64,000 nucleotides of DNA from Rhizophagus irregularis (GCF_026210795.1 NC_089433.1:3162001-3226000), one strand, 5' to 3'; positions 4,480 through 54,660 are shown, counted from the stretch's first letter. A program made the numbers and translations. Notes: generated from the sequence alone by a model not told the origin.

Positions 4480-5100
4480 TAGAAACGTTTTAACGAAATG
4501 GACGAAAGTAAGTGTTTCTTCGTTATTTTTCATTTGCTTTGTTTAAAAACATTTCTTATTAATTTTTTTTTTTGTAAAAAAACCTTTTAGAAGCGAAATA
4601 GGTGAAAGGCAACTAGGTAAGTCAATTTTTGTTTGCTTTGTTTAAGAACATTTTCTAACGTCTATTAAATTTTTTTTGTAGGAACATCTCCTGGAGGCGG
4701 AATGGACCTCTGGAAATGAAAGGTAAGGGAGGAAGTCTTTTTTTTCCTTTTTTTTGCTTGTTTTGGTTTAAGAACGTTTTTAACATTCTTTTGTTAATTT
4801 TTTTCTTAGAAAAACTCTTGAAGGTGTCCCCTGAAGGTGAAATGGATTCCTGAACATGAAAGGTAAGGGAAGAGGGTCTTGTTTTTCACTCTTTTCATTA
4901 GTTTCATTTTAGAAACGTTTTTTAACATTCTTCTAATAATTTGTTTTTGTAGGAACACTTCTGGGACTAAATAGAAGAAGGGTGAGTGCTTTTTCCGTTT
5001 TTTTCATTTTTTTTTGTTTAGAAACGTTCTTCCATTAATTTTTTTTTAGGGGTACTTCTTTGAGACGAAACAGACTCCTAGAGAAATGCAATGTAACAAA
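4480..5100 (+). ncRNA. Putative non-coding micro-exon/intron array (about 5-6 short exons)
   Basis: Repeated pyrimidine-tract TAG | 25-45 nt exon | GTAAG/GTGAG units with similar introns (AGAAACGTT...TAAC...TTCT); no long ORF seen; transcription not shown. Confidence 0.5.
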
Positions 5101-6561
5101 AAAAAGATCAAAAACTAGCTTAAAACATTCCAAGGAAAGTCATTTTCAAATTGTTAAATAAAGAAACTTAATTTTTATTTTATTATATTTTTATTTAATA
5201 TGAAATAAAGTTATACGCGTTATAAAACAAATAAATGATTGCTCTGATTAGCCAATCAAACTTTACTGAAACCCCCGATTTAGCAGCTTTAGTGCCACTT
5301 GCATGTGACTATCACATGACTCTATGGTCACATGCAAGTGGCAATTTTTTAAATAGTTTCTACCTTATTTCTTCACGTCGACTATATAGAGGCGATAAGA
5401 AGTGCAATATATTAAATTTTTTTTTAAACAAAATATTTAATTAGACTTGTTTTCAAAAATTTTGTTTAGTTTATATCTTACTACTTCACGCTAACTGTAT
5501 AGATGCGATAAAGGATCCATTTTTTAAAGTAAATTATGCATTTTTTTTCTTATTAATTAATAGATGGTGAAATTGATAATCTTGATTACCTAATACGATG
5601 TTATGATATTTGAAAATTGCTTTAAGATATTTTTTTTAAAAAAAAAAATCGGAAGAAATGACAATTATAATTAAAAAAAATGTATAAAATGTAATTTTTG
5701 AAGAATATAATATAATGTAATATTGAAAAGCTTGTAAAGAATATATAAATAATAAAATTTAAAATATTTTTTGTCTTTCTGATTTCTTCAATATTTTTCT
5801 TTATTCTAACGAAAGTCTCGAAGCAATATTTTTACCAGATCTACTTGGCACTTTGCATTCCATCGTAATCCTATCAAGATCCTTGATAGTTTTAACATCA
5901 TATTTAACATAATGTACCTTAAACGCTTCCACAACAAATAATACGAGTCGTTCCATAATACCACATTTTTTAAGTTTAGCTTTGTCAGTAGTCGCTAAAT
6001 ATCTGAATAACAACTGCTTAACAACCTCTTGAGACATAAATTCTTCAATTTCTGTAGTTGTTGGCGTGGTTCTTTGTCCTGCTCTTAGTCAGCTTTCTTT
6101 AAATTCATGGACTTTTGTATCAATTTTTTTATTTACTTTGCTACGGAAGTCCGTTAGAACGCGTTTAGAGTGGCCAATGACTTCTTCTGCATTGTTACTA
6201 TACAAGTCATAATTAAAGATATTCTTGACAAGTCTCTAAATAGCTACATCCGGTGGTGCTCTGCACCTGAGAAAAAGACACTTTATTTCTTCATGCCAAA
6301 GCCGAGCAAGCGACTTTTCATCTTCATGTACACTGTCGCGGATTTCGGCATTAGGATAGTAGACATATTTACATGAGATGAATCTAGTGATGTATTCATA
6401 GCATTGTACATCTGATTTGCTATCATTAATATATCCATCCTTTCTGTTATTAGCCATTGGCAAACTTCAAAGACACTTTTCATTCCATTTAACGCCTCAG
6501 GCTTGTCTATAGATATATGATATAGTTATTAAATAATGGTATTAGTAATAAACAACGCTTA

Positions 6562-9500
6562 GGCCGGACCAAGCCAATTATCTGTTTCTCATAACATATG
6601 TTAACCAAGAGAGGGGGGGAGGGCTAAAAAAAATTTACACTAGAGAACACATGACCATAGTATCGGCCAACATTATGATAATTTTTGCTTACACGAATGA
6701 GAAATCATTTTTTTATTAAATTGACTATTAAAGTTTTGTATTACAAACAATAAAAGAGTACAAAAAATAAAATGAAATTTTATGTTTTATGCCGTTTTGA
6801 AGCACGGCCGTTAGTTTTAATCTCTCCTTTAGTATAAAATTCTTTTTTATTTCCCTGGCACCCTTCACACAATGGATAAATTTGTTTGAAACGTTCTTTC
6901 AAAGATTGAGAAGAATCCACTAAACCTTCACTTTCTCCATAATAATAACAAATCGGATAGTTTCCTGGTTTTCGACTTGAATAATACAGTATCTCAATTG
7001 GTGAGTCACAACTGATTCGTGTACGCACAAACATTACTTCACTCAAATAATGATTATCAGGAAAATTGGTGCACCACAGGAGTATGAATATGAGTCTAAT
7101 GCTTGTTGATAATCTTCTTGTTCCTCTCGACTCATAGATCTATCACTATAAACACAGCGGCGTTTTCTACAATCCTCACAATCAATGTAACCACGGATTT
7201 TCCCTCCTATCAAAATAGACTTTGGAATAGGTTCTGCATTCGCCTGTGATTGCATATATGTTGGCCTATACTCTTCAGTAGTTTCAGTTCCATAAACGTT
7301 TTGAAAAGGCATGTAATGATCTGTATTGTCTAATGTTAAAATAAAGTGTTAAAATAAAGTTACTAAAGTTCAATTGATTTAGAATAAAAAATACAAATAG
7401 TAGATTTTAATACCTCGTGAAGGAATTGGATCTGGAAGAAAATTCAAGTTATTAAATACAGATGACGGAAGGTGAATTGGTTTACAATATGAACAGGTAA
7501 TATTGTTGCACTTTTTTATCTTTAAAATAGATTATTAATGTAAAAAAATTAATCATAATTTATTTTACATAATTTTATAAATGCTGTGATATTACCTGAA
7601 AGCTATATGCACGAGTACGGCAATGGGCATCCATAAATTTGATCAATGCAGAATGATGGCGTATTTGTGCTTGTGTAGTCTCTTTAATTGTTAAAGTCGG
7701 ATCTATATCACAAATTGACTACCCAAAATTAATTATTAGTATTAAAATCAATATAAAATAAAAAATATATATAAAATAAGTAATTACTCCAAATAATTCA
7801 GTGATAGCTTCCTCATTTGCCGAATCATTGCATTTAAATTTCTTTTCTTTTAATAAAAGCCGTTCTGTTCGATTATTTAATATATTCTGAACATTTGCTA
7901 TACTCTCTTTTAATTCAGATTCTAATTTATTGGATTCTTGAGCTTTATTTCATATATCATCTAATGTATTTGCTGTATCAAACAAAGCTTTAGATTCAGG
8001 ACTCATTTGATCACGTTTAAGTGCTACGCCTTGAAGACCTAGATTCAAAATGCTCATAATCCGTTCTGCTGGATTTGTCCAGCTATGATTAGGAGCAGTA
8101 CGAAGTGCAATAAGTATATCAAAATCTCCACAAAGAAAAAGACAGATTAATGCAATCTGTACTGATCTATAACTACATCGATGGTCTGGACCTCCATCAG
8201 TATAATGGCATAAGATTGGAGGCATCATTTGGTTTGCATATTGAATATTAAGTGCATTTAAAAACTCAGCTGAATGCCTGATGGCATTACTTGGTTCAAA
8301 GGTCGTGTCCTTGTAGGATACAAATACTTGGCCATCATAAAATGATCCAGAAATTTCACTAGAGATTGATATAAAAAATGTAACTGATGGTGTTATAGAA
8401 AGTTTTGTAAAATCGTGATCAGCTGAAGCTAAAGTGCTGTTTTGTGCAACTATGGAATGCCGATTTCGTACACCTGTAGAAACTGCAACATCTTCTCCAA
8501 TAGGCACTTTATGTTTGTCATCAGCAGAAATTAAGCAAGTCTATTGATTGTACTGGATGCAGAATTCTCTAAGGTATCGAAAAAGTGCTGCACAATAATG
8601 TGCATCATCACTACTTTTTCGAAGCAACCGCCCTTGCACCTTAAATTTAACATTGAATTGACTAGTGTGATGCATTGATCTTGTTGTAGTGGCATTTGTA
8701 GGACAAAATTGTAGTCGAATCCATTCATCTGATGGAATATAAATAGTGGAGGGAAGAGGATCATTGTAGTTAATTTTTAGTCTTCCTGTTATAATTTCAC
8801 GAAGATCACGAACAGATAATGCTAATGGCATGTATAAAATTGTTCCATGTCGTCGTTCATCTACTGCAAGTAAATTCTATTATTAAATAAATTAAATAAA
8901 TAAATAATTTAATAAATGCATTGTAATAAAAGAATGTATAATAAAATAAATATAAAAGCATTTATAATACCTGCTCATTAAAATAAGCATCCATTTCATC
9001 CCAAAATACATTAAATTTCGTTCCTTTAAATCCATTATTTGTTCGTAGATCAAATATAATGTTGGGATCTGCCAAAGATAACATCAATCGTAATCTCTTT
9101 TCTACATCATGACTGATAGCATCTGATGTCACAGCAGCATTACCAGTAAGATCAAAATGAAGCATTCGTAATACAGCTGGTGTAACTTTCCGAATATAAG
9201 AATACTAAAACAAATTATGATGAGATAATATGCAGTATCTTTAAATTAAATATATTGCATTACTAATATTAGTTTATTACCTTGTTTAACACATTCTTTC
9301 GCATTTGTCGTGTAAAATAATGAGGTAATTCTTTATTAATCCTAGCCAACATGCGTGCTTTTAAAGTTTCATTTTGTTCTTCATTTTCCAGAATTCTCCA
9401 AACATAATTAATAGTTCCTAAATAATTGCCTTGATAATATCTAAATAATAAAATTGTTTATTAATTTTTACAAACAAATTGAGATTATATCAAGCAAATA

Positions 9501-10804
9501 CCAACCTATATATACCTATTGGAAATGTGAGCTGCAATTCTTTTATAAATCGATATCGTTTCATAACATCAGTTGGAAGATATTGTTTAATATCAATATA
9601 TTCTAAAAGTGGGTTTCAAGTAAAACATTATTTAGCTGGCTGTAATTTTCATTAAGGTTTTCAACTTCGCAGGCAGAAATTCGATACATGATGCAATCAT
9701 TTTCAGGATTGCGAGCACTTTCATCACTATGATGAAGATTGGTCATATTGGTACATTTTATGGCCAGATATTCTGCATATTTTTTAAGAGTTTGGATCAA
9801 GGATAAAGTTGCGGAAATTATTTGATCCCAGATATCATTACTTGTCCATGGTTGACTGATAGATAATTCAAGAGAACTTGAAAGATAAAGTAGTTTTTGC
9901 TGTGATAATTGGACTTTTTTATGATGACTAGTATGGTAAAATTTGTTGTATGTTTCCCCATCCTGATAGGTTTTTAATTGTGTAAAAAAGACCGGCAAAC
10001 TACATGAACGTGCATGCAATGTGGAAAGATGTGGATCGATATACCAAATAGCATCTGTAATACGATTCACAAATGTTTTTCCAATTGTGTTGTGTACATC
10101 ACTTATCCAGCCTACTTTTTGATCACGAAAAAGATCAATAATTTCGTTGTAAAGTTGATTACAACGATTGTATTCAGTACATCATTGAGGAAGTAAAAGT
10201 TGACGTGAATTGTTCATTAAAATATTAAAAGCATCTGTATTTTGAATTAAAGCTGGAGTATCTGAGTTTATTTTTTCAATAATACTAAATTTGACTTGTA
10301 AAAAACTCAAAACTTCTAACATTTCTAAGTTGCCTTTTAACCCATTATCAACTTCCTTCCAATTTTCAGACTTTTCCCGTCTAATAAAAACTTTTACTTC
10401 TCTATCACCATATTCTCCTGATGTAACTGCATCAAAAAGGTTACTGAATTGATTATCTGTAGATTCTATGCTTACCACGTGTTCAGGAACTATACACTTG
10501 ATACTTTCATTAACCTGAACCAAGAGATAAAGCATATTGAGTTTAAAGAATAATCTTATCATAGAATGCTATTCAAAAGCACCCCTAAACGCGTAACGAA
10601 TGCGATTATAAATGCGAATCATTTGCCTTATTATGGATAGATTTGCGTAATTTTCGCAAGGTGTTTTAAGTTTGATTAAGGTTCAGTTCATGTGAGTAAA
10701 ATACTGCAATTTTATTGGTCATACGTAATGCATAATATCTGGGCTAATTTTCGTAAAATAGGGGGGGAGGGTTATGATAAACAGATAATTGGCTTGGTCC
10801 AGCC
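6562..10804 (-). mobile_element. Zator-superfamily DNA transposon
   Basis: ~34-bp TIRs GGC(C/T)GGACCAAGCCAATTATCTGTTT(C/A)TCATAAC, 5'-GG termini and 3-bp TTA TSD all match the Zator definition; the internal transposase is TP36/ISAzo13-like. Confidence 0.85.
6780..10562 (-). pseudogene. Multi-exon Zator DDE transposase (TP36/ISAzo13-like), inactivated
   Basis: Motifs SADDKHKVPIGE, ADHDF, YTDGGPDH, APNHSWTNPAERIMS; Cys-rich C-terminus; in-frame stops at ~10182, 9603, 8541 and 7950, plus a frameshift near 7050. Confidence 0.85.
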
Positions 10805-11823
10805 TTAATTACATTTACTTTTTTTTGCACTATGTGATGTAAAGACTTGCTCAGTTTTATCTTCATCATCGTCCTCATCTGAGCTTTTGAGATGTTCATA
10901 GCTATCATCTGTAATATATCATAAATAAGATAATAGTCAAAATTGTAAACAAAAAAAAAACAAAGGAAAAAGTCTACAATTACATTTTTCCTCTTCACTT
11001 TCTGATAGTTGAAGTAAATTAGTGATACTGTCTTGACATTTTTGATGTTTACTTTCAGGTAAATTGGTGGATATGATCCGTCTTTTATTATTTGTAACTC
11101 TATTCGACTGACTTTTAGATGCAGATTCTATTTTGTTATTTCCTCTGTGTATTTTGTTAGACTTGACAATAGTCGCACTACAATCCAATTTGAAAGGTAG
11201 GAATTGCGACCTTTCTGGGAGTACTGAAGTGTTAAAGCCATCAGGAGTATCTTCTGAAGCATTAAAGTCATCAGGAGCATCGTTATCCCTATAAAAAATA
11301 TATATACAGTTAGTATACTGTATTTTCGTATTTTGCGAACAGTATATTTATAGTATTATTACAGTATAATTACAGTATTTTCACATACTGTATATATTCG
11401 GTATTCTGCACACCGTATCATATATACGGTTTGCATACAGTATATTTTTCCAGTTTCATCCATATGTTTTATACTTGTAAACAGTAGAAAAACCGTATGT
11501 TTTATACTAATAAACAGTATATTGTTTTATATTTTATATTGCGAACAGTATACTTTTCCAGGATAAACCGTATATTTTATACTGATAAACAGTACTTTTT
11601 TCCAGTTTAAACTGCATATTTTGTACTGATAAATAGTATATATTATTCAATTAAATCGTATATTTTATATTTGCAAACAGAATTTAAAATGCATTTATAA
11701 TCAATAAAATTTTTATTAAATAATATTAAATATACAAATATTTTTTTACAGAATTTTTTACTGAAAAAAAAAACTCTTTCTGCCGATCATCCGGTCAAAA
11801 TTTTGAATAAAAAAAATTGAAAA

Positions 11824-13750
11824 ATGGGAGTGACTGTTTCAACTGAAGACGTTAGTTTATTGCAAGACTTCGGGTCTAAGTCTAAAGAGGAACAAGAAAA
11901 AGTTATAGAAAAAGCAGGTTTTGTTGTTGAAGAGACAGATAAAAGAATAGCAGAGTATATGGCACTAGCGGACTCACAAGCAGTAGTGGTACAGAGACTA
12001 TGTGAACTAGTATATAATAAAACAAAAGACAGTATGATAGAAGAAGCTCAACAACAAATGGTTCTAGCTCGACAAGAATGGGAACAACATACAGAAATTA
12101 AAGAACGAAGTATGAAGCAAGAACTACAAAAATTATTGGATGTAGTGAATAAAAAAGACTATTTAATTAGTCACGAAACTTCAGTGGTAGAGGAAATCAC
12201 ATCTACAAATGAATCAGAACGCTCAGGAGCTTCTAATGGTAACGGTCTTTTTGAAGGACAGAATTTTTATAATTCAGATTCTCAATCTTCAGGATTCAAC
12301 GAACGACTACACAAAGAGCTGAATATTGGTTCTTGTGTAATAAAGTCAGACACCAATGAAAATGAGATGAAAGGTATTAGAACTACTAAAGGAAAAAATA
12401 TGTCAATACACAGAGCGGCTGACGTGGAAAATCAGGAGCATTACCATATTGGGATAAGATCATATACTATAAGTGGTAAATTGTCGGATCAGCAGAAAAT
12501 AGATTACGTCAAGAATTTAATTCAGAAATATAATATTTCTTACCAGAGTATAGACGCACATATATTGTAGTTGCTGTTTCTAGTAATGATGAGGTAGAAA
12601 AAATTCTTGATACTTCAGGAAAGGATAGAGAGTTTCCTTACAAGTTCATACCCATTATTAGTTTAAATGCAACATTGAATGAACAAGTTATCTGGCTTAC
12701 CAAAGTAGATAAATCTTTTTCACAACAGGAAGTATGCGAGGCGGTAATTAATACATTAGGTGAAGTTCAACATATTAAAAAGATAGAGTACAGATATAAT
12801 AATTCTTTTAGAGTAACGATAAAAGTAACGTGTTCCGATGTCACTTTCAATAACACATGGTCGATTGAAATTGGCAAAGGAAGAGCTGAAGTTTGGCCGG
12901 AGAGGTTGAGTACAGAAGAAAAAAAGAAACGCAAAACTTTTAAAGCATGGATAAATAATGTAGATAAAGATACTACAGAAAGTAGTTTTACGAGACAATT
13001 ATATAATTTTAACGCAAAGAGTTGGCTTTTAGTGGATAGTGGTAATACACTAAGATTAGAAGTCACATTTGACAACAATCAAGACATGTTAAGATGTGTG
13101 AAAAAAGAATTCGTATTTGAAGGAAGAGGTTATAGATGGGAAATGGAGAACAATGACAATAAACAAATTAGGAATTTTAACAAATCGATTAAAAAAGAAA
13201 GAGAAATCATGTGTTATAATTGCGGTAGTATGGGACATATGGCCAAATTTTGTCAGAATAATAATTTTCAACAGCAAGGTTATAGAAATCAGGAAAGAGT
13301 TAAAAGTGAAGAAATAGGACTGAGATGCTACAGTTGTGGTAATGTAGGACATTTGGCGAGATTTTGTCAAAATCATCATTTTTTTTATCAAAAAGAAAAT
13401 AGAATTCAAAGAAGCAGCGGGGTCAAGGATCAGGAATAAGATGTTTTAATTGTAAAAAAATTGGACATTTAGCAAGGGATTGCAGAAACGAATACAGTAA
13501 TAGTTTCAATGGAACTGGTAAACAAGGATATAAAAATCAAGAAAAGTTTCAATCACAAAATCATCAAAGACAAGATTATAATATAGAGTATCAGAGAGGT
13601 AATAGGTTTTTTCATGCCCAAGGTAATCCACAATTACAACATCAATACAGACAACAATTTCGTGAACAAAGGTATGGAAATAGATTTAATCAACAACGAT
13701 ATGCAGGGAATGGTTCTCAGAATGGAGGTAACAACTTCAGGAAATACTGA
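11824..13750 (+). pseudogene. LINE ORF1 (gag-like) with three CCHC zinc knuckles and two frameshifts
   Basis: CYNCGSMGHMAKFC, CYSCGNVGHLARFC and, after a frameshift near 13430, CFNCKKIGHLARDC; another frameshift near 12560; Q/N/R-rich tail ending in TGA at 13750. Confidence 0.85.
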
Positions 13751-16700
13751 AGTTGCAAATAATTTTAAATCAATAAAGACAAAAGAAAGGAGCGGGAAAG
13801 GCATAGAGGAGTTGAAGGTGGAGGAAATAGACCATTATAATTCGAATAAGAGAGGAAGAGAACAAAATATAGAAATTTTAGATAATATCAATATAAGAAC
13901 AAAGAAAAACAAAAAAATAGATAAAAATAGATATAAAAATATACAAAAACAAATTAAAACAGACAAAAATATAAAAAAACTGGCAGTTTATAACGTACAA
14001 GGGTTAGGGAAAGAGGACAAATATGGTTTATTAGTGGATGCTTTAAAGGAAAACAAATGGGATATTTTGGGTTTATGTGAAACAAAGCTTAAATCAGAGG
14101 CGGCAAAATTCAGATTTATAGGTTTAGATAATTATATCAGTTACAGTGCATGTAACGAAAACTCGAGCAAAGAAGGAGTGACTTTGTTAATTAAAAAGTT
14201 GCTGGCATATCATGTAACAAATATAGAAAGAATAGAAGGAGTAGCAATTAAAGTGGATCTAGTTTTTAAAAATAAGGTTAAAAATTTTAGGTGTATTTTA
14301 ATATATAGACCGATTGAAAAATTAGAAAATGTAGTAAAAGTTCAAGAAATTCAAGATAAGTTAACAAAGTGGAATGATTGTGACTATGATAAATGGGATT
14401 TAGTAGTAATGGGAGATCTTAATGAACATTATAAGGTAGAAGAGTTCTTAGATAAGGGTCTTAATAGCGTTAAAGGAAAAAAATGCAAAATAATTAATTG
14501 GTTATTAAAAAATAATTTTATTGATTCTGAATATATCATCAATAGTTTTAATGTAGACAGTAATTTTACGTGGAAGTCAGGTAATAATTGTAGTAGAATT
14601 GATTATATTTGGATTAGAGATTCTATGGATTTTTTATTAGAAGATTTTAAGGCATTTGAATTTGAAGATTTTGTTGAGAGCGACCATAGACTAATAGAAA
14701 TAAAATTAAAGGATATTAATGAAGAAATAAAGGAGAGAGAAGAAGTTACATTAGATGTAAGTGAAGTTAGTACTATATTGGACAGAAATAAAGTACAAGA
14801 GAAATGGAAAGAATTTGCAGAAATCATAGAAAATAAGTTGAAGGTTAGTATAGCTAATGAATATGATATGGGTATTGAAGGCACGTGGAAAATGATTAAA
14901 GATTGTTTTATGGAAGGGGAAAAAATATTACCAAAAAAAGAAATTAAGAAAATGAGAGTTTCGGGAAATGATCTACTATTACGTGATAAAGAATTTAAAA
15001 AGATTTTGCAAATTTATCAACGAAGTAAAAAGATCAGGACAAGATTTAAAAAATTAAAAAAGGTTATAGCAATGCAGTTGGATGAAATATCACAAATTGA
15101 CAAAGTCTTATATGATAATAATAGAAAAATTATTAACCACAATAATTTGACGATGCAAGAGGAATACAAGTTTAATACATATAAACTGGAAGAAATTAAT
15201 CAAGAGAATTGGGAAAGTCTTAACAATAAGGTTAAGAATATTAAAAAAGATTTGGAAAATATTGGAGAAAGGATAAAACATAAACAGATTAGAGAAAAAA
15301 TTATTAAAAGACAACAATTAGCGATATCGAATCCAGGTAGTTTTATTAGGAAAATATTTGAAAACAAAAAACGACATGTTATTGATTTTTCTAGGTTGGT
15401 ATGTAAACATGAAGAGGAAATTGATATTATAGTGGATAAAGAAGAAATCAAAAATAAAGTGTATGTGCATTATAAAGAATGGACAAAAAAAAGAAGCATT
15501 GATACACAGGTCGAAGGGGCGCCATTGTCCAAAATTCAAAAAATGCAAATTCCCCATTTTCCTGGAAAATGGTGGAAAATTGTGGAAAATGCTGCATTAC
15601 GCTGAGCAATTTTTTGGAATAGCATTGTTACAACATTGTCCGATTTAGCAAATCTTATGAAATTTTGGGAAAATGCTACATTATATCTCAAATGTAACAT
15701 TTTTGTAACATTTCGTAACATTGTTATAACATTGTCATTAAAATCAAATTTTGCTTTTTTTTTGTTAAATGTTCCAATTTTCTTGCAAATGGTGCATTTT
15801 TATGAAAATTTCACATTTTACCTCAAATGTAATAACATTTAATAAAATTGTTATAACATTGTCAATTAAAATCAAATTTTGCTTTTTTTTTGTCAAATGT
15901 TCCAATTTTCTTGCAAATGGTGCATTTTTATGAAAATGCCACATTTTATCTTCAATGTGATATCATTGTAACAACATTTCATAAAATTGTTATAACATTG
16001 TCAATTAAATTCAAATTTTGTCAAATATTCTGATTTTCTTGCAAATGGTGTATTTTTTTATGAAAATTCTATATTTTCTGTCAAATGTTGCATATTTTCA
16101 GCAAATTTTACGTTTTTTTGGTCAAAATGTTTCATTTTCGTCAGAATGTTAAGATTTTACATTTTTTTTTGAAAATGCTCAGTAATATAGCATTACACTG
16201 GAAAATGTAGCATTTCACCAAATTACACTAAAAAGCATCACAATTATCTCATTTTTTGGAAAATTCCACATTACATTAAATTATACTAAAAAATGTAGCA
16301 CTATACTAGATTATGCGGCATTGCACTAAAAAATACCACAATTACACTAGACAATGTAGCATTACACTAAAAAGTACCACAATTATCATATTTTTTAGAA
16401 AATTTCGTGTTATGCTGGAAAATGTAACATTATGCTAGAAAATTCAGAATTGCACTAAAAAATACCACAATTGCACTAGACAATGTAGCATTACACTAAA
16501 AAGTACCACAATTATCATTTTTTTTTAAAAAAATTTCGCGTTATACTGGAAAATGTAACATTATGCTAGAAAATGCGGAATTGCACTAAAAAACGCGGAA
16601 TTGCACTAAAAAACACAAAAAAAAATACTACAATTACATTGGATAACATAGCATTACACTTAATTACATTAAAATTGATGATAATTTTTATTTATTTAAT

Positions 16701-17008
16701 TACGTACATTATTAAATTTATAATATTTATATTTTAAACGCATTATTTAACATTAAACACATTGTTAATATAACACGATGTGTTGTGATGTAATTTAATA
16801 CTAAACCTTACTACTGAAGACTCCCTCTTTTTGTCACTATAAACAGGCGGAGGGAGCAGCAATGGCTCTCCCCCTATAGGTACTTTATGACCTCTACCTG
16901 TTTACAGAGGAGGGGCTTTTCGTAAAGTATTAGTTAATAGATATATATATATGTATATATAAGCATATATATACATCTATTTAAAATTATTAAAATAAAA
17001 AAAAAAAT

Positions 17009-17155
17009 TCCGGGGCGGGGGGAAAGCCCCTATTTATATAAAATTATATATCACGTGCGTCACGTGATATTACTTAATAATTACCGCAGCTTCAGCTGCG
17101 GTATAACGAAAAAAAAAATTAAGCTTTTTTTAGCAAAAGCTTAATTTTTTTTTCT
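17009..17155. promoter_or_regulatory. Cluster of palindromes and GC/TATA-like motifs just upstream of the micro-exon array
   Basis: GGGGCGGGGGG, TATATAAAA, ATATCACGTG-CGT-CACGTGATAT, TACCGCAGC-TTCA-GCTGCGGTA, AAAAAAATTAAGCTTTT..AAAAGCTTAATTTTTTT; promoter role is inferred. Confidence 0.4.
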
Positions 17156-17299
17156 CACGTCCTCTTTCTTTCTTCCCTTTCCCCTTTCCCTTTCGTTCCC
17201 TTTCCCTTTCCCTTTCGTTCTCTTCCTCCCTTTTCGTTTTATTTCCCTTCCCTTCGCCCTTTTCCCCTCTCTTTCTCTCCCCTTCCCCTTTCCCTTCCC

Positions 17300-18471: not shown

Positions 18472-18736
18472 CAGGGACGATGATTTTTTGTGATCACAGA
18501 ATTTCACAGAAAATCACAAAATTTGGTTATAAAAATGTTGATAATTTTCAAGTTTTTGGCCTGATTTAGGATTTGAAATCATTATAATTCTGGCAGACAC
18601 TAAATTTGACCAGAATTTACGAATAGTAATGTTGGCCAACCTTGCATAATTCTGGCCAAATCACAAAATTTCACAAAATTTATTTTTATCACACACAAAA
18701 TTTACTTTATACCGCCGCAAAAAATCATCGTCCCTG
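18472..18736. mobile_element. hAT-type MITE (265 bp)
   Basis: TIR CAGGGACGATGATTTTTT...AAAAAATCATCGTCCCTG; 8-bp TSD CTCTGGGC/CTCCGGGC (1 mismatch). Confidence 0.9.
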
Positions 18737-19009
18737 CTCCGGGCATTTGGTGGGGTGTTCTTTTATTATATAACGAAACATTATTTAAGTTTCGTTTATT
18801 TTTTGTTTTTTTATAGGTTAAAGGAATGAAAGGGAAAGGTGAGAACGAAAGAAAAGAGAAAGATGAGAACGAAAGGGAAAGGTGAAAAATGAAAGGGGAA
18901 TGTGAAAAATGAAAGGGGAAGGTGAAAAATGTAAAGGAAAAGAGAAAACGAAAGAGAAGACGAAAGGGAAGGGTGAGAACGAAAGGGAAAGGGAAAATGA
19001 AAGGGAATA

Positions 19010-33712: not shown

Positions 33713-33953
33713 TAAAATTGCGAATGATTCCGCGATATTAGCCACCAGATTCTTACAGCCAGTTCCATTCATTAATGCGTAAATTTGCGTAGTCGTGTCT
33801 ATTCAAATAACTCAATCAATTGTAATCCATTCAATTAATTCATTAAATTTTTACAATGAATTTGCAATATAATTTTATTAGCACACATAATCTCATATAA
33901 ATTAAATAGTGAATTGATACTTTTCATCAAATTTGACGCGTTAATTTAGTAAC

Positions 33954-42829: not shown

Positions 42830-45025
42830 ATGCGAAAAAGCCGTCTTTCGTTAACTAGACCATTCTCTTTGCGAGAAGGTACAAAATTTTCTGGACGTAA
42901 TATTCTTCCAAGGCATAAGAAGTTAAGTTCGTGTAAGTAAAAATAAATTGGTATAAAAATAGACTTGAGCAACTATTATGTCTAAATTATATGTTTCCAA
43001 GTCCATCCGGATTTTTTATTATTCTTTAAAGTCAATATTCAAACAATATATATTAAAATTAAATGATTTTTTAACTGTTTAAAACTTTTGGTAGTACTTA
43101 CTAGTGTAGATAATAATGAAGGTAATGAAATGGAATTACAAGATGAAATGAACGATAACGTCGATAATAGTGAAGAAAATGAAGAAAATGTCAATAACTA
43201 CGATGAAGAAACTGATTATAACTCTCACGACGGAAATGAAGAAGAAAATAACTATGAAGAAGAAACTGATTATAACCATCATGACGGAAATAAAGAAGAA
43301 AATGATGATAACTACAGAGAAGAAACTGATTATAACTACCATGAAGAAAGTAACTACAGTGAAGAAAATGTTTATTATGATGATAGTAGCAATGTAGAAG
43401 ACAAGGACGAACTGGAAGATGATTATAATATGGAAGAGGATAATGTTATTGATGAAAGTGATAATGTAACTTTTAATTTATTTGTTTACTCCAAAATAAA
43501 CTAGATTTAAAGTTGCAGTCACGATCAGACTAGTTCTTACGATCTGAATCAGAATTGATCAATGAACCCATCCCTAATGCCGATGGCATATTTTTTTAAT
43601 GACAATTTTTCCATTTTAAAAGCATGAAGACACTATAGTTGATTCGTCAATAGGTTGTAACCATATGTTGAATATAGATGGAAGATTTGCACCTTACTTT
43701 GAAAATTCGACCTTTGCATTATTATTTTGTTGGATACAGAAACACAACATATGTAAGTCTAATTTTGCTATAATGAACCTATTTGACAATTTATTTAAAA
43801 GATTTACACTGATATATAGCAACGCATGCATATAACGACTTGGTAGAAGTACTACACCATCAAAATTTTAAAGTTAAAGATGTTGTAAAGAATATACGAA
43901 GGCTCCGACAATGGAGAGATCAGTTACCATTGATGCCAATACGGACGCACCCTGTTAGAATAAATCCAAAAAAGACGCCATCTACGTCTAAAGGAACAAA
44001 GTCTTGTTATTATTTGTCAATTTGTGATATTATTCAGAATATATTAAATAATCCGTCACTCTACAATACATTATACTTCGGACCGGGAATAAAATCTGAA
44101 GAAAAAAAGGAATATTAGCATGGGGATCTTTGGGCTGAATCACCATTGTTTGGCCAAGAAAAAATAGCCATCAATAGAGGTACTTTCGATTTATTATTAT
44201 TGTAAATGTATGTAACTTATCTTATACTTTTTTGGTATTTAGAAATTTATCGACCAAGTGAATTTGTTTTATATATAAAAAATGGTAATCGAAGATTTGG
44301 ATGAATACAATCAATAATATTGGTCAATGATGAACTTCAGGTAAAAATACAACGTATTTATACTTATAACGAATTACAAAATAATTTTCACTCTAATTCT
44401 CGATCAATTACGAAGGAATCGCAATTGTGGATGGTAGATCAATATTTAAAAGAAGGTAGTATTATTGCAAATACTTATGAGATCATTAGAAAAGTTAATA
44501 TTATGATTATTCGTGAAACAAATACTACTGACGGAATTTTTATTAAAGAAATTTTATACAAAAGTAATGGTTATTGGAAAATGCGAAATGTGACGCTAGA
44601 TTACAAGCATCCAGGCGAATATTTTATTCTAAGTTTACCACCACTACAATATAGGAATCTACGAGTTTTGAAGATATTTATTGATATTTACTATGATGAC
44701 TTCAGTACCTATCGAAATGTTTACCATTCCTTAGGCGGAGTTTATGTTCAATTGGGAAATATGCCATTCGATATAAGAAAACTTGTTCGCAACCATTTTG
44801 TCTTAGGTTTTATTCCCTTCGGTGGTTGTTTTGAGGATTTCATTCGTCCTTTCATTAAAGATATGAAGAGGTTGGAAAAAGGAACATTGATGAACATCTA
44901 AGGAATAGATTGCTGGATCATAGCTAGCCTTGGATGCGTTATTGCAGACCTATCCCAAGGAAACGATTTAGCAGGTGTAAAACGCCATGGTGCGATAAGA
45001 GGGTGTAGAACATGTCTGGTTACTA
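42830..45025 (+). pseudogene. CMC/Plavaka-like transposase (YYDDF family), 3'-truncated, with stops
   Basis: Acidic N-terminus, WAESPLFG, FIDIYYDDFSTYRNVYHSLGGVYVQLGNMPF, ADLSQGNDLAG, GCRTC; homologous to 55388-59021; stops at 44116, ~44302 and 44899. Confidence 0.85.
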
Positions 45026-45288
45026 ACTTTGCTGAAACTCCTAATTTTAAAAAATATTTTTACGATACAGTTATGTAATAGTATGATATAATAATAATAA
45101 ATAAACTATAAAAATATGATAATTTAAAAAATACTATTTAAATAAAATAAAAAGATGATAGGAAAACAATATAATAACCATAATATGAAAAATAAGAGAA
45201 ATAATTTTTTTTATTATACTCAAATTACGATATTAATACAATATTTTTATAATATTTTAATATAATAACATCGCAGAAATATTATTAA

Positions 45289-45662
45289 GGGTAGAGTGTA
45301 TCACGTGATACTTCATATAGATCGACTTGTCAAATTCCTTATTACATAGTAGCACTATTTTCTGTACAATATAAACTTTTGTAATACTTAACATAAATGG
45401 ATAAAATTTATATCGTTAGAAAGCCACAATTTTGAACTTTTATTTTTTTAATTAAAAAAACTTCTTTTATAAAAAAAATCTTTAAAAAACACCTAATGAA
45501 GTTGCGACTAGGCATATATGTTTTTGCGACTAGGCAATCTTGAATTTTATTGGTTGTTAATATCAGTTGTATATTTAAAATGTAAACAAATGATCAGCAA
45601 ATCTATAGTAAAATAATTTGCCACCCGCTACATATAAAAAATGATCGATATATACTCTACCC
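45289..45662. mobile_element. TTAA-targeting MITE with GGG termini (Kolobok-like)
   Basis: GGGTAGAGT(G/A)TAT...ATATACTCTACCC flanked by TTAA on both sides; purine termini fit Kolobok rather than piggyBac. Confidence 0.8.
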
Positions 45663-45764
45663 TTAAAATATCACTATTTTTTAATTTTGGCCAATCATTA
45701 CCAAAAAAAAATTGGCAAAAACATTTATAAGCAATTTAAGAAAAATACTTTCAAACTGCTGTAC

Positions 45765-46750
45765 TAATCATGGGTTTGTTTCAGTTTTTCAGAGTTGAAG
45801 CCAGATTTCCTGTAAATTAAAAAAAAAGTTAAATCATTTTTAATATAAAAAAGTTTACAATAATTTTTGAAATTCACTAAGGACCTCGATATCGAAGCTG
45901 GAACTAGGAGTACCAAATTTTTTTTAAAAGGGTTGAAAATTTTTTTGAACTTGCCTAGGATTCTAGTAATTCCAAGTCGGAGTTAGTTTTTGCAAAAAAA
46001 AAAATAAAAAAGAAATTTCATACTTTATTCGTAGTAAACCCAATAGAAAAGAAAAATCCCAAAGAGCCGCCAAATCTAAAATGTACCAAAAACCAAGAGA
46101 AAGAAGACGATGATTAGTAATGAAATCAAAAAGGAAAACAAAAACTACCCTTGTTCTGAAAGGTAGAAAAGAAAAAAAAATAAGAATGAACCTAATCTTA
46201 ATTTCCAGGAAAAACCGTCAAAATCTGAAAGAAGAGTCATTGAGACCTAAAAAAAGACGATGAATTCAGTAAGAAACTGAATAAAACCAACCTAAGATTA
46301 AAAGAAAAAATTGCCATAAATAAACCAACTGTCACTCCGAAAGTATACTCACAAAGCCCTAAAGAAAAGAAAACCGATATTAGTCAACTAATCAGAAAGA
46401 ACCAAAGATGAAAATTAGATTATAAAATGGATGAAAAAAAATTACCTTTACCTTTCAATAGCACACTCGACAACTAACACCTAAAGAAACAAAAAATCAG
46501 TTAGTACGAACAAAGACAAGAAATGATCAGAGGCGAAAAAAGCTCACCTTTACCTTTCTGGAAGAATCAAAGGAACAATAAACAAAAAAAGGGTAGTATG
46601 AAATAGAGACTAGAAACTAAAAGACGAAAAATAGCTTAGTACTCTTTCTCTTTCCAAAAGAGCCACCAGACAAAGACATACGAAATAGCACTAAACAAAA
46701 ATGGAATGCAATAATGTAATAAGGTAAAAAAATGAAACTTATTAACCTTA
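45765..46750 (-). ncRNA. Putative multi-intron non-coding transcript (irregular micro-exon array)
   Basis: On the minus strand, successive CTAA(C/T)-pyrimidine-TAG/CAG acceptors and GT donors around very short exons; GAAAGGTAAAG resembles GAAAGGTAAGG of the 4480-5100 array. Confidence 0.4.
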
Positions 46751-48293
46751 CGAAAAAGTAAGAATTCGATTAAATTATCGACTTGTAAAGTTAAGCTTTA
46801 ATAAAAAAGCTTAATTAAATTGAAAATCAAGTATCAATATTTTATTTTTATTTAATTTCCATGTGAACAAAGGGACAAACTATTCGTAAGCCTAAAGTAA
46901 TTCTAAACTACCAAACCGCCAAATTTGACAGCGCCACCTTGGTGTCAAAAAACAAACCTGTGGAAGGACGCATCTGAACACGTCCCGCCCACTACGCATG
47001 AGAGTAAAAGGCTAAGGAAAGAAAAAACCAAAGAAAGAAGAGCGAACAGAAGCATTAAAAAAAAGGAAGTTCAAACATATTCCATCTCTCGTATTATTCT
47101 TTCGTCTATTGACGCCACACGTAAATACTGTCAGGTGTGGAATGATGCATTATGTATCAGTCCGATATTGTTTCTGTCTTAATGTTAATCATGGGCTGGA
47201 GTGGGTACAGTATCTACCGATTCCGTATGAACGATCACTGATGGTGGTGTTGGATTCATAGTCTGGTGATAGTGTACGTCGTAAGAAGACGGACGGGTTG
47301 TTGATGATGTTCCGATCTTTGTCTGAAATGACGAAAGTAATGCCACTGCTTAAAAATCAAGTATCAATTTTAGTAAATAAACTGACCAAATAAGTATTTA
47401 ACGAAACACGTAACTGCCGAAAGAGTGCATGATCTCTAACAATAACTGATGGAGAAGATATAATAGCTGTGTACTCATCTTTCAGGTTTCACTTCATATG
47501 ATTGTCTTATTTTCCATAATTGTATGTTGCAACCTTACTTTCCCTTAACCAATTTTAATCTCAAATGACAGTATCATTTTGATCTTGATCAAAGGATTTG
47601 ATTATTGCATAATTATTCTTGTTTGTAGTTGGCTTCTTTACTAACAAAAGAACAAGACGAAAAAAAGTGGTGATATGTGTATATGCTTGTGTATAATGAA
47701 TTAAATAAATAAGAATAGAAACCATTGCACTACTTATGAATCCACCTTAGAAAAGGGCGAACCCTAAACTTCAGCTTCAACAACTAACTTAGATGCTATT
47801 AGTACTCAAGCATGGCAACCGGTTTATAGGTAAACTGTGGCAATAAACCCAAACACTACAAAATCAAAGGTTAGTAGAAAAGGGTTAGGGAAAATAATAT
47901 ACATGAGCACTGGTCGCATTTCAGTGTAGTTTTGACTACAAACTTCCGTAGCTCGTCATAGCTCGTCGTAGCTTATCGTAGTTTGTAAAAATGATAAGAT
48001 CAATTTTTATTTTAATCTCAGTTTATATAAACTGATTATCAATTGGCGTAATTGTATGGTATGTATACTAAATTTGTCTACAGTACACGTATACAATGTC
48101 TGATTTCGCTTTGGCTTGCCATATCTCATAGATGATAGATCTATATTTTAGATCTTAATCCAAATACCTAAAAATGCGAACAAAAAATAAAATTCCGCGC
48201 AGCAGATCTAGTGCAGGACGATGATTTATGGCATTTCACATAATATCATACAAGTCACAAAATTTTTTGATAAACTATATCGCTACATATTTT

Positions 48294-49963
48294 TGTTGTA
48301 CCTCAGATCGATTCTCAGATTGAAATCGTCATGTGAAGTGTGTGATGTGGATCATTGATAATCTGAGGTACTCAGTTTTTTAATCTAAGGCAAATAAATT
48401 TTTTTAAAAAAAAATATCTACTATTTTATTAATCTGAAAATAGTGTTATGTAACTACATAAAAATTATTTTGATTATTATGCTTTAATAGGAATGGTTCT
48501 TCACGCTAATTAGCTTCTTTGAGGTAAGTTTCAGAAGCTTTTATTTTTATTTTTATTTTTTTCTTTTTTGGAACGGTACTAACCATTTTTTTTTCTTTTT
48601 TTTTTAGCATTTCGGCCTGGACTCTCTCCCGGTAAATAGGTGTGCTATGATGTCTATTATGGTGTTAGTTTCTTTCTCTTAGAACGATACTAACTGTTCT
48701 TTTGTCTTTTTTTTAGCATTTTGGCCGGGACTCTCTCCTGGTAAATAGGTGGTGCTATGGTATCTATAGTATTAGTTTTTTCTTCTAGATACTAACCATT
48801 CCCTTTTCTTTTTTTAATAGGAATAGATTAATGGTTTTTAGAATAGGTAAATATTTAAGTAAGAAAACATAGGAATATTAGAAAAATGAAAATTCATAAT
48901 AAGAGGAACGAAAAGTTTAATGTAAAATCTGATATTAAATAATATAAAAATTATGTATAATCCATTAACAAATAAAATCAATGAATTAAGCATATATGAA
49001 ATTACTTTAAATTCAATTTCTTAATTATTTTTTTCATATAATACATCAGTAATAATGCATTTCTTGACTAATTTATTTTACATATAAGTATCATTTATTT
49101 TTGCCACGAACGTCCACTATAACATCTACTGCTACAGTCTCCACCCGCCTTCTTACAGCGACATTTATTACTATTGCATTCACCTTTACAATTACATATA
49201 CCCCCTGATACTAAACCAGCATTCTGAAGGCATGCAGCTTCTCTAATTGATATTTTGTTAGAGGGAATGACTTCTAATTCAGGAAAAGTTTCTGCTAAAA
49301 AAAAAAGACAAAAGAACAGTCAGTACTGTTCTAGGAGAAAGAAACCAACACCATAGACACCACCTATTACCGAGAGAGAGTCCAGGCCGAAATGCTAAAA
49401 AAAAAAGGCAAAAGAACAGTCAGTACCGTTCTAGGAGAAAGAAACTAACACCATAGTAGACATCATAGCACACTTATTTACCGGGAGAGAATCCAGGCCG
49501 AAATGCTAAAAAAAAAGAAAAAAAAACGGTTAGTACCGTTTCGAAAAGAAAAAAATAAAAATAATAATAAAAGCTTCCAAAACTTATCTCAAAGAAGCTA
49601 ATTAGCCGTGAAGAACTGTTCCTATTTAAAGCATAATAATTAAAATAATTTTTAGTGTAGTTACTAATGGGTTAAACTAGCACTATTTTTTCAGATTAAG
49701 ATATTTTTTTTTTTTAAGAAAAAAAGCGAAGCACAAGATTTTGAGAATTAAGAAAAGTTCGAACGAACTTTTCTTTCTTATCCTTGAAGATCTTTAATCA
49801 CAAGACTTTGAGAATTAAGAAAAGTTCGAATGAACTTTTCTTCCTTATTCTTGAAAATCTTTAATCACAAGATTTTGAGAATTAAGAAAAGTTCGAATGA
49901 ACTTTTCTTTTCGTATATCACATTGTTTCACCTAGTTGCGATCTGACGATCTGAGGCACAACA
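48294..49963. mobile_element. Internally deleted Ginger-like foldback element with ~500-bp inverted arms
   Basis: TGTTGTACCTCAGATCG...CGATCTGAGGCACAACA (TGT..ACA termini); 48430-48780 mirrors 49295-49700; central integrase C-terminal relic; TSD not resolved. Confidence 0.75.
49091..49294 (-). pseudogene. Cys-rich C-terminal fragment of a Ginger/KRBA2-like integrase
   Basis: ETFPELEVIPSNKISIREAA..CNCKGECNSNKCRCKKAGGDCSSRCYSGRSWQNK*. Confidence 0.7.
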
Positions 49964-50029
49964 TATATATGACATATTCGCAAAATTTTCTGCAGTATAA
50001 ATTTTAAGGGGGGCAAGTCATTATCCTAT

Positions 50030-50375
50030 ATCGAAAAATCAGTGCAATAAAAGTTCATACACGAGTTAAAGATTATGTATTTCGTGCTGATAATGGATTA
50101 CTTTTCTGTATGTGATCTCAATAGAATGGAAACATAAATTAACAAAAAGCATGCTTCCCAAAAAATTATTTTTGAAACAAAGGAAAAAGCCAAAAGTCAG
50201 CAAATAATACAAACTACTTGCTATAGCATCAAAAAAAGAAGTGATAAAGGATTCGATAGAAGCATTTTCTAATGCAGATATTCCTTTACGAAAGTTAATA
50301 GTTTACTTCTGTTTTTTTTAAAAACACCTCAAAGAAGGAGGCGCAATTCCTCAAGCAACAACTTTACGTCAGAAT
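50030..50375 (+). pseudogene. Degraded CGGBP1-like/hAT transposase fragment
   Basis: Frameshifted remnants FRADNGLLFC, AFSNADIPL, GGAIPQATTLRQ. Confidence 0.5.
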
Positions 50376-50623
50376 TTTCCCAAATTTTCACATTAAAAAC
50401 TTTTTTGGCTAAAGTAAAGATTCTTTAATCAAGTCTCTTAAGTCTCTTGCTTGAAAATCTCGATACATAACTCTTTATATATGAACGGCATTAGATCACT
50501 GTGTAAAATTCTGTTACCGAATAAAACTTGATGGAACATTACTTATAGCACAAAAACACCAAATTTAATATTTGGAAATATTTTTATTTTTAACAATTAC
50601 ATCTATTTTGTTGTGAAAAAAAA

Positions 50624-52235
50624 TTACCTAAGCAATTTTTTGAGATCTAAAGTGTTTACAATATCATGCTTTTATACAGAATGAACTTTAATTCCTAAGG
50701 TAATATGATCTAAAGTTTTTTTGATTTTATCCCCAGGAAGATCAACGTCTGCGCCATCTTTATCTAGTAGTTCATAATCAAGAACGATTTTAAATGATTC
50801 TATTACAAATTTTTTAAGTTGTTCTTGATCATCTTTTGACGATTCAAATTCATCTTTTTGAATAGCACGAAGATGCATAGATAAAATGTTTCTCCACGAA
50901 TCGCCAATGTATTCTTCAACCGTAACCTTTCTATAAATTTGGTTAATATTTTTATTTAATAATAATACAATAATCAATAGTAATTTATTTTGATTCTTAC
51001 TCTTCATCTTTTATATAAGTATTCACCATTTCTGATATTTTTTTCACATATTTGTGCCTATAGTCTGCCATTTTTAATACGCATTCGTGATGAATATTCT
51101 TTGCTGTCTCCTGATGAAGTTTATCCCTCAAATCTGGATAAATTGCACAAATAATCGCATTAAAAACATGCGAATTCGGTTTTCGACACTTTAGAAATAG
51201 GAGCTTGAGTTCTTCGATCAAAAGTTTATTATTTATACCCTTTTCTTTCTAAATAATGATAGACTTTTAATTCAAAATAAATTTACATTAAAATGAATTA
51301 TAAATATTTACTATACCTGAAGAGAAAGAGCTGGCAATTTACAATTTCTAGAATTTCCAGCCGTTACGCTTTTAGATTCCTTAAGAACACTAGCCAGCTT
51401 CAATATTGGTGGATGATCCGCAACAAAATCGGCAATTTCAAATTCTGTGTATGATTCTAAATTGTTTCTCCTTTAAAAAAACAAGAGGTATATTCTAATT
51501 AGTAAGGGCATTAAAGGTATAAGTGTAACGTAAGATGTGATAAATGTGTCCCAAACAGTAGTTTACTTACATGTTTGGACGATCTGGAATTAATATAGGA
51601 ATATCATTCGTTATTTTATCGAAATCGAATAAACTTAAATTTTCTTTTCATTTGAAAACACGTTAGTTTTTCATTCTAAATATTCATAGCAAATAGTTTT
51701 GTTCTTTTGACAAACCTTGCCCTTGTTGTTCAGGTCCTTCGACTGTCTCTAAATCTATTATGTCAGGTGGAATCTCTTGTATAGATTTTTTTTTCTTAAA
51801 TCTTGATTCAACGGTATTAGGTAGACTTCTTTTTTTCGGAGCATTCTTTTCTTGTTGAGATTCTTCTATAACAGCAGTTTTTATTTCTGGAGGAATTACC
51901 ATGACGAATATGTCTTTTTTAGATCTTGCTTCAGGTAAACTTCTGTTTGTTATAGCTAATGCTTGTTCATTTTCTTCTGCGACAGTTTCTAAGTCTGAGG
52001 ATATTTCCTCTATAGATTTATTTTTCTTAGTTCTTGCTTCATTTGTATTAAATGAACTTCTATTTTTTGTTATAGGTTGTTTTGATCCTTCTGCAACTGT
52101 ACCACCTAATCCTATAATAAAAGAAAAGAATATTAAGTTATAGTTTATAATTTATTTGAGATATTATTTATTAAGAAATTTATTTAGCTACATACTTTTT
52201 GATGTAGCATTTTTAGATTTTTTTTTGGGGGCCAT
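50624..52235 (-). pseudogene. Accessory gene of a CMC/Plavaka-like element (multi-exon)
   Basis: MAPKKK start; EELKLLFLKCRKP..ADYRHK homologous to the 5801-6500 segment; an internal stop at 50672. Confidence 0.65.
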
Positions 52236-53789
52236 TTTTATTTAGAATATTTAGAAAGAGTGTGGAAATCAGCTTACATTTATATTAATGCAGTAACCGC
52301 GTTAACTACGTGAAGAATCTTCTGATCACAAATGAATCAGAATAAAGTACACGCTTGAAATACGAAAAAAAGTTCAAATTCTTTGTCAAAAACTATTTTA
52401 TGAGGCAATTTTCATCAAATAAAGCAGTGTTCGATCTGACATAATAAATCACACGAGTTTATATTTGTCATTACGAAACAAACTTTACCCCTGACATTTT
52501 CAGCGATTGTTATTTATCTAGCTTTTTTTGTTCATGGTAAAGGTCTTGTGGATTGTTAAAAAATTTATTAAGTACGTCACATCTCCACATTTTAACGAAT
52601 TATTGAATTATTATTATTACTACTATTTTATAATTTACATTTTTATCATTTATATGATTTAGCGAAAAAAAATTAAATTGAACCTGGCAGTAAATTTAAT
52701 TTCTTACAAATGTAGAGATTGTTAAGTATTTGTTTACGAACTTAACAATTTATTTTAATTTGTCAGTGATCTTATGTTGCTATTTTGTAAATCACATTTA
52801 AATTGGAATAAAGAAATGAGCAAAAGTTTGTAACCGGTAACTTACATAATGGTAATGTATTGCAATGACAACCAATCTTTAGTATTCTGAGACAATATTC
52901 TGGTCAATCATGAACGCGGATCTGTCAGTGAGATATCTCAATTATACTAAAATTTATTGTGTGTGAAAGTTTTTCTCTCCCTTTACTGATTTCATCATAA
53001 CACTAAATTGAATGTAGCTTCGATAAAAGTCATGGAGAATTTAAATTCAACACAATGCCTTCATCGGATTGAATATTATGGTAATAGCCCGATGAAAACA
53101 TTTTTTTGCCATGACATAATGTATTTTCTTATATGAAAATTTAGCCAATAAAAACCATCTCCTCTCATCAATTTTGATAAAAAAAATTATTTTATAGCGA
53201 AAAAAAATCTTTCAAAATACTTTAAAAATTTTTTTTTTTAAAAAAAAGGAGCTAATAATATTACATATTACACAAGAAAACTTAATTCTTTTAGAAATGA
53301 TAACCCAAACAAAAAAATATTTTTTTTGTCGTATTACAAACAAAAAATGATACACAAAATAGAAAAATGTATAAGACATGCGTTCCTATCCAATAAAAAT
53401 GGAATGGGAATCCTAATCTATATCTGCCAGTTGGGAAATCCAGATCTTCAACATGTAAAATAAGGAGCAATCAGAAATTTACTTATTGTTGCCAAACCGA
53501 CAATTATGCCAATTAGACTTTATTTGTTAATGTGATATATTAAAATGGTATATAGAAAATTCACTGGTTGAGATTAGGGGTACAGACTTTTTCTTTTTTT
53601 AGCAGTGACGTTACGGCAGTTACGTCGGTAAAGTTTGTTGACAATTTTTGCATGTGAATTGTCAAAGCAAAATAAATCAATCGGTAGATCAGACTAGCCA
53701 ATTATGGTTTGTGCCGAAAGATAATCTTTTTAGCGTTAATAAACTTAAAAAAAAATTTTTCCTTTAAAAAAATTACTCTTATGGCTTCA

Positions 53790-54660
53790 TTTTTTAGGTA
53801 TGTATCAGCTTAGATTTTTGCGCTTTGGATCGGTAAGTTAGCTTCGAAACTTAACTTTTTTAGTAAATTTTTCTTTTGAAAAAACTTTTTAATTTTTATT
53901 CATAGATATCGGTTTCAAGGGGGGGAAGTATTTTTAAAAAAATCGTTTTAAACTTTCATTTCCTTTTTTAGATACCGGCTTATTTGGATCAGATCTTGGA
54001 TTTAGTAAGTTTCGGTTCAGAACTTACAATTTTATTTTAATTTTTTCTTTTTTTTAAATTCCTCTTTTTTTTGTAGGTATCGGTTTCTTCAGCTTTGGGG
54101 TATGGCAAGTTTTGATTTGATACTTCGAAACTTACATATTTTCTTTAATTTTTTATTAGTTTTTCACCTTTCTTTTTTTCTGTAGGTACTGGATCTTTTG
54201 GCATTGGACTTCAGACGTTGACTTCTTGGACTTCTTTGGTTGGATTTCTCAACATTGAACAGCACTTGGACTTTTTTTTCTGTAGGTCAGCGTCTTGGAG
54301 TATTTTCTCTTGGAACGATAAGTATCTTTGGTGGGTATGGTGATGTTAGCATTATTAAATTATACCAACGCCATTTTTCTTATCTAAAAATTTTTTTATT
54401 ATAGGACCTTCAGAACCAAAGGAACCCCCTGAGAGGTAATTATTAAAAGTAGGAGGGGAGTTTTTTTAAATTGAGAACGCTAGTAAGCTTTATTAACGTT
54501 TCACTTTCTTTTTTTTATTGTAGGGCCTACCAGGTACTTTGAAACTAATAAAACGGCCCATAGAAAAGAAGGGGAGATGTTTTAAATTGGAAATATTAGT
54601 AAATAATACTAATGTATTCTTTTCTTTTGTATGTTTTGGCAGGTTCATTGGATAGATAGT
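53790..54660 (+). ncRNA. Putative micro-exon/intron array with hairpins over the donors
   Basis: GTAAGTTAGCTTCGAAACTTAAC and GTAAGTTTCGGTTCAGAACTTAC donors, TGTAG acceptors, ~20-35 nt exons; followed by a TTTGACCTGTG right TIR ending at 55025. Confidence 0.55.

Follow-up and report, generated by a model that had tools for sequence, protein, structure and literature searches.

Tandem short-exon and intron arrays, likely non-coding, in transposon-rich DNA of Rhizophagus irregularis

Closely spaced introns separated by very short exons recur at several places in a 64,000-nt stretch of the Rhizophagus irregularis genome (GCF_026210795.1 NC_089433.1:3162001-3226000; hereafter the window), raising the question of what these arrays are, whether they share an origin and what repeated splicing might do for the mobile DNA around them. 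A sequence-only reading of the window had proposed six separate arrays (A1 to A6) within several apparently unrelated DNA transposons, and had seen in them a lineage-wide, convergent module of intron-dense non-coding RNA, possibly anti-silencing or self-regulatory. The window is 28% GC and consists nearly throughout of nested mobile DNA (Table 1); the named proteins nearest to two of its segments are from R. irregularis (92-96% identity). The ISAzo13-related DDE element is presumably Zator-like. Positions 1-2430 are taken up by about 28 copies of an 81-bp satellite that is organised in higher-order repeats and shows a strong GC skew, and telomerase reverse transcriptase exons (60029-63486, +) immediately flank the transposon cluster at the right end. 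Two related multi-exon genes (43067-44900, +, and 55388-58917, -), both opening with an acidic low-complexity region and without a Pfam match, are probably a transposase family.

Table 1 Arrays and mobile elements in the window, numbered from its first nucleotide
Feature	Position	Strand	Description
CACTA-type MITE	3981-4268		Adjoins A1 as a separate element
A1	4482-5100	+	Introns about 4508-4590, 4617-4681, 4723-4809, 4863-4952, 4982-5049
ISAzo13-related DDE transposon	6560-10805	-	TIRs of about 30 nt; several stops within the coding region
LINE	11821-24200	+	Zinc-knuckle ORF1, endonuclease, reverse transcriptase, RNase H; interrupted by CACAG element
CACAG-type element, host of A2	15505-20600		CACAGGTCG...CGACCTGTG; non-autonomous; ATA on both flanks; long subterminal repeats; sits in the LINE
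A2, first part	17319-18452	+	Nine double-hairpin introns of 91-105 nt; exons 21-41 nt
MITE, presumed hAT-type	18472-18736		19-nt TIRs; 8-nt flanks with one mismatch; within an A2 exon
A2, second part	18750-19581	+	One intron; a purine-rich exon of 201 nt; five further introns, their exons 42 nt long
Plavaka element	28666-37227		Long subterminal inverted repeats; hAT nested at about 29400-31850
TGTA...TACA stretch	45760-47941		No TIRs; flanks AACTGC / AACTTC; ends picked by eye
A3	45765-46751	-	Degenerate short-intron run; strict parser gives one run of 2 only
A4, left arm	48451-48846	+	Begins TGTAACTACA; introns 48524-48607, 48632-48716, 48741-48820; 24-nt exons
rve integrase C-terminal remnant	49095-49295	-	KRAB-A-domain-protein-2-like; immediately follows the final A5 acceptor
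A5, right arm	49295-49665	-	Three introns; first donor reads AT
A6	53798-54740	+	About seven introns of mixed types, including 54105-54185 (GC..AG in the window) and 54331-54404 (GT..AG)
Probable right end of CACAG-type element carrying A6	54900-55025		TTTGACCTGTG

Units of donor, branch site, T-tract and YAG were found in all six stretches, on the strands that had been proposed. Strict parsing of the whole window yielded eight runs of at least two units and four of at least three, every one within the six stretches, while across 40 dinucleotide shuffles (500-nt blocks) runs of at least two units averaged 1.0 (maximum 4) and none of at least three arose. Counted by eye, A1 holds five introns, A2 holds 15, A4 and A5 hold three each and A6 about seven. 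The unit is a tandem repeat of about 120 nt, composed of a 20-45-nt exon and a GT-AG intron, frequently with a palindrome spanning the donor and another spanning the branch site; exon size is narrow (median 35 nt) although units are only about 65-75% alike. Their introns have the features of U2-type introns, namely a GT or GC donor, a branch motif, a pyrimidine tract and a YAG acceptor. We are confident that the arrays are tandem runs of such a short-exon and intron unit, carried in DNA transposons. Beside ordinary arrays, acceptor-plus-exon units also stand in long tandem runs that have no donors (window 54186-54330; metagenome loci L023, at 1-1600, L014, L015 and L045); these are possibly alternative-acceptor banks or deletion products.

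CACTA/CMC transposons, Plavaka among them, have 3-bp target-site duplications (TSDs) and subterminal repeats. The A2 host, about 5.1 kb long, resembles them in its CAC- TIRs, matching 3-nt flanks and long subterminal repeats, but its cargo is an intron array, with no transposase and no gene. The Plavaka gene at 33945-36900 belongs to a different element. The MITE lying within an A2 exon is one that we take, from its TIR and TSD type, to be hAT-like. A pyrimidine-rich A2 leader (17150-17318) is complementary to the purine-rich exon at 18817-19017 (about 72% over 107-136 nt; -146.5 kcal/mol against -118 +/- 6.5 in 100 shuffles), which could allow the RNA to fold back on itself after splicing. 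A6 is probably carried by a CACAG-type element ending at 55025, of which the left end was not found; termini of the CAC- kind described for CACTA/CMC elements in the available text of PMC11075540 mark the A2 host and probably that of A6.

A4 and A5 proved to be copies of one another in inverted orientation (86% identity across 376 nt) that point toward each other and, since an integrase remnant lies between them, represent the arms of one Ginger-like deletion derivative; the six stretches therefore amount to five independent loci. The remnant is 92% identical to R. irregularis proteins carrying rve, in which H2C2 falls below the Pfam cut-off, and is a Gypsy-like integrase, as in Ginger elements. 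TGTAA starts the left arm, from which the right arm deviates in its final base; another candidate pair of ends lies at 48294 / 49963, and at neither candidate boundary was there a clean 4-bp TSD. With Ginger2/TDD elements (PMC2836005, in the text available) this host shares a candidate TGTNR start, long inverted arms and, through its homologues, an H2C2 and rve integrase. Ginger2 arms are reported there as 50-180 nt with introns lying in the transposase gene, whereas the arms here measure about 370 nt or more and themselves hold the non-coding intron arrays.

Carriage in several unrelated DNA transposons, as first proposed, thus held for A2 (CACAG-ended) and A4/A5 (Ginger-like) and is probable for A6. 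A1, with internal exons of 26-53 nt, lies outside the neighbouring CACTA-type MITE, and for A3 a TG..CA element is only suggested. The 2.2-kb TGTA..TACA stretch is a possible solo LTR hosting A3; if it is one, spliceable introns would lie inside a retroelement end.

The unit is clearest in the A2-type intron, in which one palindrome pairs donor positions +3 to +9, a second encloses the branch and the 3' tail is free (fold z -3.9 to -7.7 for the nine double-hairpin introns); two local hairpins with a free tail, not one end-to-end hairpin, rule out mirtrons. CpG observed/expected is 2.0-2.4 in A2-type introns and 0.7-0.8 for A1, A3, A4 and A6. In 60 hairpin cores the donor G is present 46 times and the donor T 45 times, whereas the mirror position has them 9 and 13 times, and CTAA appears in branch loops on the sense strand in 39/62 and inverted in 1/62. 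Among 76 branch hairpins, and with these signals not serving as search anchors, the first AG falls 8-35 nt beyond the hairpin in 74, in TAG context in 71, and a donor follows within 70 nt in 65. Because the first AG had that spacing in 53/76 on the mirror strand, its position alone is weaker evidence than the TAG context and following donor.

Several positions of the hairpin stems covary more than they do in shuffled sequences (standard pairs 52/74, shuffled maximum 41, and 25/31, maximum 20, the sequences being related). No excess of G-U over A-C was seen in the stems (13 v 11 and 16 v 17; 22 v 19 in the summed second test), so they may be DNA palindromes instead of selected RNA structure; to judge from stem sequences, either RNA structure or palindrome maintenance may account for them. 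The lack of G-U bias is consistent with near-neutral expansion, whereby a leader or terminal-repeat intron was duplicated in tandem together with its flanking exon, intron number grew without function, palindromes arose from DNA-level hairpin correction, and copies persisted because splicing removes them from RNA. Such a history would also suit the 121-nt tandem copies in the second part of A2, recent at 93% matches, the many further palindromes and tandem repeats in the non-coding transposon DNA of the window, the decayed arrays and dead first donor of A5, and the orientation of the Ginger-like array, which points into the integrase reading direction. It sits poorly with splice signals, branch polarity and narrow exon size having been kept among diverged units, also in the gene-less A2 element, and we regard it as possible but tentative.

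Raw RNA reads from runs bearing the same species label were aligned to window positions 45000-62500, covering A3 to A6, from three RNA-type runs (one of which may be DNA by its record) and a contig run. The first A6 intron in Table 1 was bridged by 5, 8 and 27 joint reads in the three runs and the second by 8, 3 and 29, with 0 for either in the contig run; as the reads were 90-99% or more alike to the window, they probably come from related copies. For A3 to A5 there were no joints among those listed (ten further joints are not shown, and 24-nt exons are hard to align); reads span the A4/A5 intron positions, which indicates unspliced RNA or DNA. Most depth outside A6 came from reads that fit only in part or had loose ends in A/T runs (about 85% continue into unlike sequence) and is therefore not taken as expression. 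The array introns are likely to be spliced throughout, the joints observed being for two A6 introns in related copies.

We considered whether the exons belong to micro-exon genes whose small proteins are varied through exon shuffling. Very short exons are numerous in Schistosoma micro-exon genes. The arrays differ from these in lacking frame symmetry: exon lengths are flat modulo 3 (22/28/22; p 0.61) and so ignore frame, which makes the exons likely non-coding, as had been proposed for these intron-dense arrays, at least one family of which is spliced. Only half of 24 similar exon pairs were of equal length, and 11 of the 12 unequal pairs were frame-shifting. Two public R. irregularis gene models ('hypothetical protein', 88 and 125 aa) do annotate A6, but they use the same exons and junctions in different reading frames, and a 10-nt gap falls within an A6 exon in 8/16, 7/15 and 45/45 reads. 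Reconstructed spliced A2 has an ATG frame of 126 aa and spliced A6 one of 94 aa, lengths reached in either case by only 2/500 base shuffles, the A2 frame running through four recent copies of the 42-nt exon, which is the youngest in A2. TGA is under-used in exons (25 v 47), overall stop-codon depletion being mostly TA avoidance, and GT and AG are avoided there (observed/expected 0.49 and 0.63). Exon lengths that are neither multiples of three nor frame-keeping led us to reject the micro-exon reading, and protein genes of this kind are very improbable here. Non-coding transcripts with very short exons are also found in snoRNA host genes; the arrays depart from these in that 0 Rfam matches reached the gathering score in five sources (the window and four metagenome loci), a search that covers described families.

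A pattern derived from A2 retrieved 47 stretches in 44 metagenome loci. Forty-five loci, 28 AT-rich and 17 others, were examined with a profile from nine A2 introns; L030 and L042, judged to be chance matches, had been taken out of the AT-rich set manually, and 16 representatives of the 28 were used for statistics. In keeping with the proposal that the arrays extend past this genome, at least two units of the same kind were present in 27 of the 28 AT-rich soil-metagenome loci, with profile matches in 0 of the 17 others; the AT-rich loci form 15 clusters at 90% identity, and because they come from a search with the A2-derived pattern and are mutually related, these counts are not independent. 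Scans of viral contigs returned 1 and 25 loci with 0 array-profile matches, and a prokaryotic genome scan returned 0 loci. Two of the metagenome loci end in CAC[A/T]GGTC-type termini against 0.6 expected, a weak signal. L034 contains, at 711-2189 (-) and 3250-8900, a TET/JBP dioxygenase gene downstream of two long arrays; the gene belongs to a Glomeromycota family, as its named relatives show. The CCGCAGC palindrome found ahead of A2 in the window occurs in this locus too, with a small run of introns on the opposite strand upstream of it. TET/JBP genes carried by fungal DNA transposons are described in PMC12730594, the available text of which does not mention Rhizophagus.

The A2 profile HMM had no match to A1 or to A3 to A6, and the links between arrays rest on pairwise comparison and the branch-hairpin motif. 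Aligned with the metagenome unit pool and scored relative to shuffles, z was 7-20 for 5/6 units of A2, 4.5-15.8 for 5/7 of A6, and 4.9 and 9.0 for the first A4/A5 intron, whereas 18 control coding introns, some with approximate coordinates, reached at most 2.0. A looser branch-hairpin motif gave nine window matches, all in A1, A2, A4 and A5. Those in A1 lie at 4772 and 4912, and with unit alignments of z at most 2.3 A1 is probably a distant member of the same family by its sequence; A3 is the weakest array (z at most 1.7) and looks unrelated to the rest. Several intron types are mixed within single metagenome loci. Related units in A2, A4/A5, A6 and probably A1 point mostly to one exchanged module, not to the convergence that had been suggested. 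An independent origin for each array would suit A3, without similarity to the pool, and the weak resemblance of A1, but not arrays that match a shared pool far above controls or types intermixed at one locus, and we think it improbable. On sequence comparison the arrays are best described as a single module, shared and shuffled, that occurs in two or more transposon types of no mutual relationship, with A3 as a seemingly independent array beside it.

Introners, as described in the available text of PMC9860276 and PMC12130899, are likewise families of sequence-similar spliceosomal introns tied to DNA transposons. The arrays differ in being head-to-tail repeats that include exons, with internal inverted repeats, and in not being seen singly in genes; their hairpins are internal, not terminal (TIRs and TSDs typify only some introner families), and six arbuscular mycorrhizal fungal rows in the part of the PMC9860276 supplement consulted have an introner score of 0. 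We rejected the introner reading, given tandem units in nearly all AT-rich loci, exons that are related too, and no single dispersal at unrelated sites. Spliced non-coding RNA from fungal transposons is also known from Blumeria hordei, where lncRNAs are proposed regulators (PMC10648671); according to the text available, those average 2.3 exons and <1.9% have >5, whereas an array here has up to 15 introns and, unlike them, is built of a repeated, shared hairpin unit of about 120 nt. The literature searched, which mostly excluded subscription journals, holds no description of such arrays: the main texts of two R. irregularis transposon papers (PMC8647823, PMC11075540) contain neither 'intron' nor 'splic', and the available parts of PMC10234402, PMC11952901, PMC9757828, PMC12130899 and PMC13465315 do not describe them. 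They are apparently an undescribed but real variant of transposon-borne spliced non-coding RNA.

How might such a module work and spread? A Pol II transcript, driven by a promoter near the element end, would yield a leader or antisense RNA in the Ginger-like element and a stand-alone RNA in A2; no common promoter word was found apart from scattered CACGTG and CCAAT sites. The exon-intron unit would multiply by tandem duplication and the module would pass between element families. As the exons encode nothing conserved and splice signals are retained even where the element has no gene, selection most likely acts on splicing itself. Introns serve as marks of self in mammals and worms. By analogy, repeated splicing would let an element pass for one of the host's genes, which would aid its resistance to RNA silencing; introns hinder nuclear RNAi in Caenorhabditis elegans (PMC5554785, in the text available). 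This host mimicry is, in our analysis, the most likely role, if a tentative one, and neutral leader expansion and siRNA self-restraint follow it closely. Against it, the hairpins would mask donor and branch, and slow splicing with siRNA production, which are linked in Cryptococcus (PMC6232588, in the text available), fits at least as well.

The arrays might instead restrain their own elements, with donor and branch hairpins slowing splicing and stalled spliceosomes or complementary RNAs feeding a small-RNA pathway that limits the element or its family. Stems that pair across donor positions +3 to +9 and surround the branch, and that show compensatory changes, speak for this, as do the facing arms A4 and A5 and the A2 leader that pairs with a later exon; the available text of PMC8647823 places 41% of R. 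irregularis small-RNA loci in unannotated DNA. Donors near consensus (GTAAGT in 69/137 parsed introns) and the splicing of an intron that bears a donor hairpin argue the other way, and self-restraint seems unlikely. Likely non-coding spliced arrays that mimic host genes against silencing remain, as a whole, our best explanation, held with about as much doubt as confidence. The more specific idea of a portable splicing-decoy cassette in Glomeromycotan DNA transposons, an amplifiable non-coding array of micro-exons and hairpin introns swapped between unrelated superfamilies, loading spliceosomes onto element transcripts, mimicking host genes, escaping RNAi and methylation and sometimes lying beside an element-borne TET/JBP gene, would go further and is rather doubtful.

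Unclassified repeat makes up about a quarter of the R. irregularis genome (PMC8647823, in the text available), and the arrays constitute a definable class that could fall within this unclassified or unannotated fraction. They demonstrably give rise to 'hypothetical protein' models, which bears on counts of orphan genes, and if the decoy-cassette idea is true they may explain a share of the annotated 'orphan genes' in these fungi. With element copies that have arrays and copies that lack them, a standing question would become testable in one genome, namely whether introns protect mobile DNA from silencing or give it away.
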